Source of the DNA: Escherichia coli
GTDB lineage: Bacteria > Pseudomonadota > Gammaproteobacteria > Enterobacterales > Enterobacteriaceae
Assembly (NCBI RefSeq): GCF_003334255.1
Contig: NZ_QOWU01000052.1
Strand: one strand, 5' to 3'
DNA: 41,323 nt
The position numbers were made by a program, and so were the translations under genes. Below are positions 1 through 318 of the stretch, in pieces (within the stretch, counting starts at the first letter, position 1; each line of letters starts with the position of its first letter). The notes below the pieces were generated by a model. The model saw nothing but the letters and a program-made list of their open reading frames with translations, had not been told where the DNA came from and searched no databases.

Positions 1-29
1 GCTTTCAGCTCACTGTCGCGAGGTGGCGT

Positions 30-57
30 ATATTACGCTTTCCTCTTTCAGAGTCAA
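30..57 (-). promoter_or_regulatory. rrnD P2 promoter (minus strand -35 TTGACT at 52-57, 16-bp spacer, -10 TAATAT at 30-35), transcribing leftwards out of the window
   Basis: Reverse complement of 30-57 reads TTGACT-16 bp-TAATAT; matches the conserved rrn P2 architecture; located ~120 bp downstream of the P1-like element on the same strand. Confidence 0.6.
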
Positions 58-138
58 CCCTGAATTTCAGGATTTTTTTCTCTTCGTTGTTCCGACCATC
101 CTGTGAAGTGTTTCACGTTGTCGTCTCAACGGAGGCGC

Positions 139-166
139 ATTATAGGGATCCCAATTTTTTGCACAA
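139..166 (-). promoter_or_regulatory. rrnD P1 promoter (minus strand -35 TTGTGC at 161-166, 16-bp spacer, -10 TATAAT at 139-144, GC-rich discriminator GCGCCTCC)
   Basis: Reverse complement reads TTGTGC-16 bp-TATAAT-GCGCCTCC, the hallmark rrn P1 core with a GC-rich discriminator; an A/T-tract-rich region lies immediately upstream (167-300). Confidence 0.65.
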
Positions 167-300
167 GTATTTTTTTGATCTTTTTTTCTGTTTGTTGTTT
201 TTTCACCCTTTTTGCTGCAATCGCACACAAAACGGTGCTTTTTTGCATACTAAAAGACTTGCACAAGGCCAATAATGCCCCCAAAGTCATTAGTAAATCA
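167..300 (-). promoter_or_regulatory. A-tract-rich upstream activating region of rrnD P1 (UP element plus probable Fis sites)
   Basis: Phased runs of T/A (tttttttgatcttttttt, tgttttttcaccctttttgc, tgcttttttgc) directly upstream of the P1 -35 on the minus strand; function by analogy with rrnB P1. Confidence 0.45.
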
Positions 301-318
301 TTTATTGCTGAGGTAAGT

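Follow-up and report, generated by a model that had tools for sequence, protein, structure and literature searches.

The rrnD promoter region and the start of the divergent yrdA gene in Escherichia coli

The DNA ahead of yrdA in Escherichia coli lends itself to two readings. On the plus strand a frame opens with a GTG at position 103 and runs without a stop to 873, i.e., through yrdA, giving a protein of 256 aa. On the minus strand the same DNA carries two hexamer pairs which, from the letters alone, had been taken for promoters of an rRNA operon. Is this region regulatory or coding, and where does YrdA begin? The question is addressed here in a window of 41,323 nt (contig NZ_QOWU01000052.1, assembly GCF_003334255.1); positions are counted from its first letter. 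The window equals NC_000913.3 3428918-3470240 of E. coli K-12 MG1655 save for A>G exchanges at 26565 and at 36672. It is close to certain that positions 1 to about 215 constitute the promoter region of rrnD, read leftward, that yrdA is a separate and divergent gene which starts at ATG 319, and that the frame from GTG 103 is open by accident. rrnD P1 and P2 divergent from yrdA and a corrected start misannotation are all already known and are textbook biology. The scientific weight of the finding is correspondingly small: few bacterial promoters have been studied as thoroughly as those of rrnD, and curated annotation of K-12 already gives the corrected start of yrdA.

Two promoters of an rRNA operon

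The minus strand of MG1655 to the left of the window carries rrsD (16S, b3278), tRNA-Ile, tRNA-Ala, 23S, 5S, tRNA-Thr and 5S, i.e., rrnD. From window position 1 it is 155 nt leftward to the 5' end of the rrsD 16S gene. The original prediction stood or fell with an rRNA operon in this place, pointing away from yrdA; the synteny bears it out, and the gene order of rrnD is complete. The first 900 nt of the window are 100% identical to E. coli K-12 and to many other E. coli genomes. Used as a query they find matches in 5426 of 5426 complete genomes; the median E. coli genome contains three such places because the stretch from P2 into the leader is common to rrnD, rrnH and rrnE. A search of the entire window with Rfam at gathering thresholds gave no match in 1-318. 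The sole Rfam match in the window is the alpha-operon leader at 13522-13633.

The promoter elements are as follows.

1-22, minus strand: start of the P2-initiated rrnD leader, about 22 nt, from alignment with the rrnB, rrnH and rrnE leaders.
29-23, minus strand: P2 discriminator, ACGCCAC.
30-57, minus strand: rrnD P2 core, with the -35 TTGACT at 57-52, a 16-nt spacer and the -10 TAATAT at 35-30.
130, minus strand: putative +1 of P1, a G, placed by alignment with rrnB.
138-131, minus strand: GC-rich P1 discriminator, GCGCCTCC, directly after the -10.
130-166, minus strand: rrnD P1 core, with the -35 TTGTGC at 166-161, a 16-nt spacer and the -10 TATAAT at 144-139.

The 500 nt upstream of all seven 16S genes of MG1655 were aligned in the direction of rRNA transcription. 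P1 and P2 of rrnD align column for column with those of the other six rrn operons. The -10/discriminator block of P1, TCCCTATAATGCGCC, does not vary among the seven operons and has one match only within the 41-kb window. Since this match falls on 148-134, the unit at 139-166 is P1. The P2 block of rrnD is identical to that of rrnH and rrnE and homologous to P2 of rrnB; over the longer stretch from its upstream A-tract into the leader, rrnD is identical or nearly so to rrnH and rrnE. Beginning about 50 nt downstream of P2, the leader does not vary among the seven operons; this part includes boxA, TGCTCTTTAACAA, which lies beyond the left window edge and is seen just left of the window in the locus L003.

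The alignment also bears on the transcription starts. The column of the rrnB P1 +1 holds A in six operons and G in rrnD only, and for this reason the +1 of rrnD P1 was set at 130. A G in this place agrees with the report that rrnD P1 is the one rrn P1 which initiates with GTP (PMC9239199). The +1 of P2 is probably a C at about 22-23, to judge from the aligned sequences, and the starts so assigned to P1 and P2 are about 108 nt apart.

The pairs which had been read on the minus strand, TTGACT-16-TAATAT at 30-57 and TTGTGC-16-TATAAT at 139-166, are present exactly as described, and their assignment to the rrn type holds: by the seven-operon alignment they are P2 and P1 of rrnD, respectively. An alignment with rrnB P1 and P2 had been proposed as a check, and both units do align. 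To call them near-consensus was generous. Both promoters agree with the consensus at 9 of 12 hexamer positions, and their 16-nt spacers are sub-optimal; in the -35 of P1 only 3 of 6 positions agree.

Upstream elements and their conservation across genera

Upstream of the two cores the following elements were considered.

167-190, minus strand: P1 UP element, with A7 tracts at 176-170 (-46 to -40, proximal) and 187-181 (-57 to -51, distal).
194-208, no strand assigned: candidate Fis site I, G-N13-C with an A/T core, centred at 201, i.e., at -71 from the P1 +1.
59-71, no strand assigned: palindrome of 13 bp, CCTGAATTTCAGG, followed by a T7 run at 73-79 on the plus strand.

The proximal and distal subsites of rrn P1 UP elements are contacted by the C-terminal domain of the RNA polymerase alpha subunit. 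The two A7 tracts of rrnD P1 are 11 bp apart and, counted from a +1 at 130, occupy exactly these subsite positions; judged by sequence and position they are the UP element. A block of it, CTTTTTTnGATCTTTTTTTCTG, is kept across genera. Further A-tracts are found at -68 to -73, -79 to -83 and -109 to -114 from the P1 +1, and P2 has a single A7 tract at -51 to -57. The phasing which had been claimed for the A-tracts stands for the first two tracts of P1, but is looser beyond. The candidate Fis site is centred at -71, where rrnB P1 has its Fis site I. The block at -71 is likewise kept across genera, and 194-208 probably is Fis site I of rrnD P1, though its coordinates are approximate. That rrnD possesses P1 and P2 and that Fis bound upstream activates P1 is reported in the literature (PMC5110994).

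The palindrome and T-run at 59-79 look like a terminator hairpin with a T7 tail on the plus strand. This candidate was rejected: it consists of the palindrome and the A-tract upstream of P2, as the T7 run at 73-79 is A7 on the rRNA strand and sits at -51 to -57 of P2, the position of an UP element. RNAalifold predicts no consensus structure for the hairpin at 59-71. On the named structure 68% of cells are paired compared with 59% in shuffles, a weak and equivocal conservation, and other genera have different stems in this place. The length of the T-run ranges from 5 to 7 nt in the E. coli genomes sampled. It is a minor possibility that palindrome and T-run go beyond the P2 UP tract and form a conserved structure in the P1-P2 interval.

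Related loci were collected from a one-genome-per-species collection with a degenerate DNA pattern back-translated from the YrdA peptide DDVGIWPLVVIRGDV. This yielded 30 loci from Escherichia, Salmonella, Citrobacter, Enterobacter, Kosakonia, Phytobacter, Franconibacter, Intestinirhabdus, Erwinia, Pantoea and Winslowiella. The YrdA match is located 320-720 bp from a contig end in many of the draft assemblies, as would be expected if these break at an rRNA repeat. The P1 core CTATAATGCGCC is found 180-192 nt upstream of the yrdA ATG in 26 of the 30 loci; in the window the distance is 185 nt. Of the other four, Winslowiella arboricola, Erwinia rhapontici and Pantoea coffeiphila kept TATAAT and have another discriminator, whereas Erwinia persicina (L020) was left out of the alignment. 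In loci with a sufficiently long contig, the P2 -35 is 265-274 nt, boxA 333-343 nt and the 16S gene 495-500 nt from the yrdA ATG, with the exception of Erwinia rhapontici in which the 16S gene is at 542 nt. The P2 core is near-invariant in 21 enterobacterial loci, as is the P1 block across genera.

The multiple alignment resolves a succession of conserved blocks: P2, P1, the UP element, the block at -71 and then GAGGT and the ATG. Between 216 and 300 the sequence varies, and the indels there are not multiples of three. Because the conserved blocks are promoter elements and 216-300 carries non-triplet indels, conservation within 103-318 tracks the promoter architecture and not a reading frame.

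The start of yrdA and two open frames over promoter DNA

On this DNA the following coding features have to be compared.

319-873, plus strand: yrdA, 184 aa, gamma-carbonic-anhydrase family with a left-handed beta-helix, according to RefSeq, 3TIO/3TIS and N-terminal peptides.
310-314, plus strand: Shine-Dalgarno sequence GAGGT (GAGG at 310-313, 5 nt before ATG 319), kept across genera.
103-318, plus strand: non-coding in-frame extension of 72 codons, from GTG 103, which makes up the 256-aa ORF 103-873.
126-290, minus strand: ORF of 54 codons, 'hypothetical protein' WP_000172051.1 in some RefSeq records.

YrdA starts at ATG 319. All 11 RefSeq records inspected place the start there (184 aa), and UniProt P0A9W9 is the 184-aa protein. 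The crystallized YrdA (PDB 3TIO/3TIS, 183 residues) spans residues 2-184 of this form, beginning with Ser2, i.e., without the initiator Met, and differs from the ORF from 319 by a single R/H exchange at residue 6. The homologue from Salmonella, 3R3R, covers 1-184 and aligns from the same Met. An equivalent ATG is present in 29 of the 30 loci; in the thirtieth it is one codon downstream because of a one-codon deletion near the N-terminus.

N-terminal proteomics and ribosome profiling had been suggested as arbiters of the YrdA start, and the published data place it at ATG 319. In the TRAINSPOTTER study the N-termini MSDVLRPYR and SDVLRPYR were mapped to the annotated ATG at 3429236-3429238 (PMC13245402, Table S1, rows 774-775), which corresponds to window 319-321. 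Both carry the entry 'Ribo-RET, INRI', i.e., support from Ribo-RET and INRI-seq, and in the same table the Shine-Dalgarno sequence of yrdA is scored with a 5-nt spacing. Among the rows listed in Table S1 there is no alternative start for b3279, no long-form N-terminus and no entry at coordinate 3429020, which is GTG 103; proteomic evidence for a 256-aa YrdA, which would have spoken against the original prediction, does not appear among them, although such an absence is weak evidence.

The long frame itself is real. The ORF of 256 aa from 103 had been described as Cys/Phe-rich at its N-terminus and as overlapping the promoters and UP elements, and so it is: the first 72 residues contain 10 Phe, 10 Ile and 5 Cys, the remainder has 0.5% Phe and 0.5% Cys, and the extension covers P1 and its UP element. 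The composition has a plain origin. As the complement of the A-tracts, the plus strand between 167 and 245 is 53% T; consequently stops are rare in the extension and codons for Phe, Ile, Leu and Cys are frequent. An open frame from GTG 103 is a mild coincidence, to be expected at some genes among more than 4000.

Sequence variation does not respect the frame. In 26 of 26 loci outside Escherichia in-frame stops occur 12-207 nt upstream of the ATG, which limits a possible extension to 0-67 codons. Seven diverse E. coli genomes were compared, and in one of them (L012) an additional T at 180 cuts the extension to 28 codons. Most length differences between E. coli genomes are in the T-run at 73-79, upstream of GTG 103, and leave the long ORF intact; a 2-nt deletion there lengthens the extension to 98 codons. 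Variable sites by codon position are 1:3:5 in the extension and 3:1:11 in yrdA of E. coli, too few sites to decide the matter; more telling are the additional T at 180 and the comparison across genera.

The 256-aa sequence is nevertheless widespread in databases. It is found in exact form on at least 1000 contigs, as 'gamma carbonic anhydrase family protein' or 'Protein YrdA', and as UniRef J7R9P7_ECOLX. It is a start-site error of the 'longest ORF' type which has been fixed in curated annotation and recurs in bulk submissions.

Three other explanations for this DNA have to be weighed. The hexamers might be chance matches in AT-rich intergenic DNA, with rrnD driven from elsewhere. A generic sigma-70 scan of 1-1200 lends itself to this view: it returns one site, P2, compared with 1.7 +/- 1.3 in shuffled sequence, so the hexamer matches alone are not beyond chance, and P1 is missed altogether because its -35 TTGTGC matches at only 3 of 6 positions. 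As far as sequence can tell, promoter status rests on homology and not on hexamer matches. The column-wise homology with the characterized rrnB P1 and P2 and with the other five operons, and the near-invariance in about ten genera, in which the distances to 16S and to yrdA are fixed, argue against chance. The notion had in fact been refuted before by published rrnD mutants in which the P1 -10 hexamer was changed from TATAAT to TCTAAC and by rrnD promoter deletions (Gaal et al., 2016; PMC5110994); its probability is practically nil. It is also exceedingly improbable that a minor 256-aa isoform of YrdA is made from GTG 103 in which the Phe/Ile/Cys-rich extension anchors the gamma-carbonic-anhydrase-like domain in the membrane. 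One may hold in its favor that the 72 codons are open, as in only 1.2% of mononucleotide shuffles of 103-318 in the given frame, that the frame is kept in most sampled Escherichia genomes, that the extension resembles a transmembrane segment, and that the protein is annotated in a large number of deposited genomes. Further, mass spectrometry would have difficulty in detecting so hydrophobic an N-terminus. Yet GTG 103 has no Shine-Dalgarno sequence upstream, and a transcript that includes it would need an origin left of 103 and would meet the very strong P1 region head-on. The candidate yrdA promoter at 259-287, discussed below, is far downstream, and GTG 103 probably lies outside the yrdA mRNA. 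The in-frame stops outside Escherichia and the 1-nt insertion in one E. coli genome disrupt the frame, and the few substitutions within the extension among E. coli genomes are mostly amino-acid-changing. No protein family matches the 72-aa extension alone; NCBIfam models match the 256-aa form from residue 77 or later, and no profile or structure match to it starts before residue 66. That the extension is hydrophobic is a direct consequence of reading the T-rich complement of the A-tracts, and N-terminomics, Ribo-RET and INRI-seq show the short N-terminus only among the rows listed (PMC13245402).

Similar considerations apply to the minus-strand ORF from 290 to 126. As a real small protein encoded upstream of P1, maybe translated from an antisense RNA starting inside yrdA, it is highly improbable, even though the PGAP pipeline annotates it in some genomes, the same MTL start and IPIMRLR end occur in Escherichia, one Enterobacter and three Kosakonia loci, and earlier work describes an antisense promoter within yrdA (PMC2912661). 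A CATAAT is present at 472-467 inside yrdA. Against a protein stands that its conserved C-terminal half is the translation of conserved DNA, i.e., of the Fis, UP, -35 and -10 elements; the terminal IPIMRLR, ahead of the stop, translates ATCCCTATAATGCGCCTCCGTTGA, which is the P1 -10 plus discriminator. The frame is not conserved: near-identical DNA of sister taxa (L021 compared with L033, and L026) reads in other frames after indels, and the ORF is missing in Erwinia, Pantoea, Phytobacter and others. Among the rows listed in PMC13245402 neither a peptide nor an initiation site is assigned to it. On these grounds it was rejected as a small protein, and the 54-codon ORF is probably spurious.

The probable working of the region and its relatives

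With the region read as the rrnD promoters and a divergent yrdA, its operation is probably as follows. Sigma-70 RNA polymerase would initiate leftward at P1 with the G at 130. Initiation would be helped by the A-tract UP element at -40 to -57, which would touch the alpha C-terminal domains, by Fis bound further upstream with a first site centred near -71, and by the concentration of the initiating nucleotide GTP; Fis activation and GTP initiation are here adopted from the literature. As P1 combines a weak -35 with a 16-nt spacer and a GC-rich discriminator, its open complex would be short-lived, and this would render the promoter sensitive to NTP and ppGpp/DksA. P2 would initiate about 108 nt downstream of P1, at about 22. 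Transcripts from P1 and P2 would leave the window leftward, pass the boxA antiterminator and reach 16S. yrdA is transcribed divergently and translated from ATG 319, with GAGGT at 310-314 as ribosome-binding site, into the product of 184 aa whose N-terminus has been mapped experimentally by others.

The closest known system is rrnB. Both operons have two sigma-70 promoters upstream of 16S and share the P2 -35, TTGACT. P1 has in both a TATAAT -10, a 16-nt spacer, a discriminator of the form GCGCC(A/T)CC, an UP element rich in A/T between -40 and -60 and Fis sites upstream, and the invariant leader carries boxA. The differences are in detail. The P1 -35 is TTGTGC in rrnD and TTGTCA in rrnB. The P1 spacer and UP sequences differ, with two clean A7 tracts in rrnD. 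The P1 +1 is G in rrnD, whereas it is A in rrnB, and the dependence of rrnD P1 initiation on GTP is ascribed to this G. The interval between P1 and P2 is about 10 nt shorter in rrnD, and the P2 -10 is TAATAT in rrnD compared with TATTAT in rrnB. rrnH and rrnE diverge from rrnD upstream of the P1-P2 interval, i.e., in P1 spacers, UP elements and neighboring genes.

The 256-aa form of YrdA has its relatives among over-extended gene calls, with which it shares an upstream in-frame GTG without a ribosome-binding site, a location over regulatory DNA and absence from orthologues. Its 72 extra residues are found in no homologue, structure or family model. Nothing in it is different in kind, but the extension is unusually long and hydrophobic because the frame reads the complement of the A-tracts of the UP element and Fis region.

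The question of how yrdA is transcribed leads to a further element.

259-287, plus strand: candidate yrdA promoter, TTGCAC at 259-264, 17 nt, CAAAGT at 282-287, inside the region upstream of P1.

Both hexamers recur in Escherichia, Salmonella, Citrobacter, Enterobacter, Kosakonia and Phytobacter, with a variable sequence in between. TTGCAC-17-CAAAGT is a plausible yrdA promoter. The constant spacing between P1 and the yrdA ATG (180-192 nt in about ten genera) together with TTGCA-N17-CAAAGT upstream of P1 raises the possibility that yrdA is driven by a divergent promoter which shares Fis-bound, bent DNA with rrnD P1; the activity of the rRNA promoter, and with it the growth rate, would then be coupled mechanically to yrdA expression. 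We regard such a coupling as rather unlikely.

The intergenic architecture between rrnD and yrdA is tightly conserved across genera. For annotation hygiene it matters that the 256-aa YrdA and the 54-aa minus-strand ORF are gene calls over rRNA promoter DNA which propagate in databases. If the coupling, doubtful as it is, were true, expression of the gamma-carbonic-anhydrase-like YrdA would track rRNA promoter activity and growth rate.

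Gene calls over the rrnD promoter DNA

The DNA upstream of yrdA has attracted open reading frames on both strands. On the minus strand the calls are:

126-290, minus: 54-aa 'hypothetical protein' WP_000172051.1, annotated by PGAP (locus L047)
54-290, minus: ORF in the E. coli genome L012, the counterpart of the 126-290 ORF

A 78-aa variant of the 54-aa ORF is deposited as WP_136511987.1. The 54-aa ORF overlies the Fis, UP-element and P1 DNA of rrnD; its C-terminus is nothing but the P1 -10 hexamer and discriminator in translation. Close relatives do not keep the frame and, therefore, WP_000172051.1 is probably a spurious gene call. 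On the plus strand the over-extended 256-aa YrdA (103-873) is present as an exact sequence in at least 1000 contigs in public protein collections, with J7R9P7_ECOLX as its UniRef entry. There is, in addition, a 274-aa variant.

Expression and coding region of yrdA

Two elements concern transcription at yrdA:

259-287, plus: candidate yrdA promoter, TTGCAC-17 nt-CAAAGT, recognized by conservation
467-472, minus: CATAAT inside yrdA, matching a reported antisense -10 hexamer

The first is preserved in Escherichia, Salmonella, Citrobacter, Enterobacter, Kosakonia, and Phytobacter; the sequences on either side of it vary. The distance from rrnD P1 to the yrdA ATG stays within 180-192 nt across genera. 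From the sequence, 259-287 is a candidate for the yrdA promoter, situated within the region upstream of rrnD P1.

An antisense RNA promoter in yrdA has been reported, and it is the -10 hexamer of this promoter which CATAAT matches (Dornenburg et al., 2010, PMC2912661). A transcript starting there would head left, toward the rrnD P1 region. Mutation of the antisense -10 hexamer left yrdA-lacZ expression unchanged (Dornenburg et al., 2010, PMC2912661). At the other end of the gene, yrdA (plus) and yrdB (minus) converge and their 3'-ends overlap by 25 nt (849-873); the pair is among those reported by ExcludonFinder (PMC12288877). Residue 6 of YrdA (334-336) is Arg in the window and in K-12 vs. 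His in the crystallized protein (3TIO).

Remainder of the window

Compared with NC_000913.3 the 41,323 bases contain only two differences, at 26565 and 36672, both G in the window vs. A in MG1655; one is located in the gspA-gspC intergenic region, the other in gspO. Rfam returned a single hit across the window:

13522-13633, minus: RF00140 (102.7 bits), the alpha-operon ribosome-binding-site leader, located 5' of rpsM

At gathering thresholds no Rfam match was obtained for the leaders of the S10 and spc operons.

The segment between rrnD P1 and P2

Two overlapping features are located here:

59-79, plus: perfect palindrome CCTGAATTTCAGG, then T7
73-79: T-run, i.e., the A7 tract at -51 to -57 of rrnD P2

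Read on the plus strand, the palindrome with T7 looks like an intrinsic terminator. Stems of differing sequence occupy this position in Erwinia, Pantoea, one Citrobacter and an Erwinia MAG; in several genera the palindrome is degraded. The covariation count for the stem exceeded controls only weakly, and RNAalifold yielded no consensus structure for the palindrome region.

The T-run comprises 7 nt in K-12 but is shorter, at 5 or 6 nt, in the seven further E. coli genomes sampled (loci L009-L015); most of the remaining genera carry runs of 4-6 nt. When 2 nt of the run are deleted, the spurious frame of yrdA grows to 98 codons. Because the T-run occupies the UP-element position of P2, the strength of rrnD P2 might change with its length.
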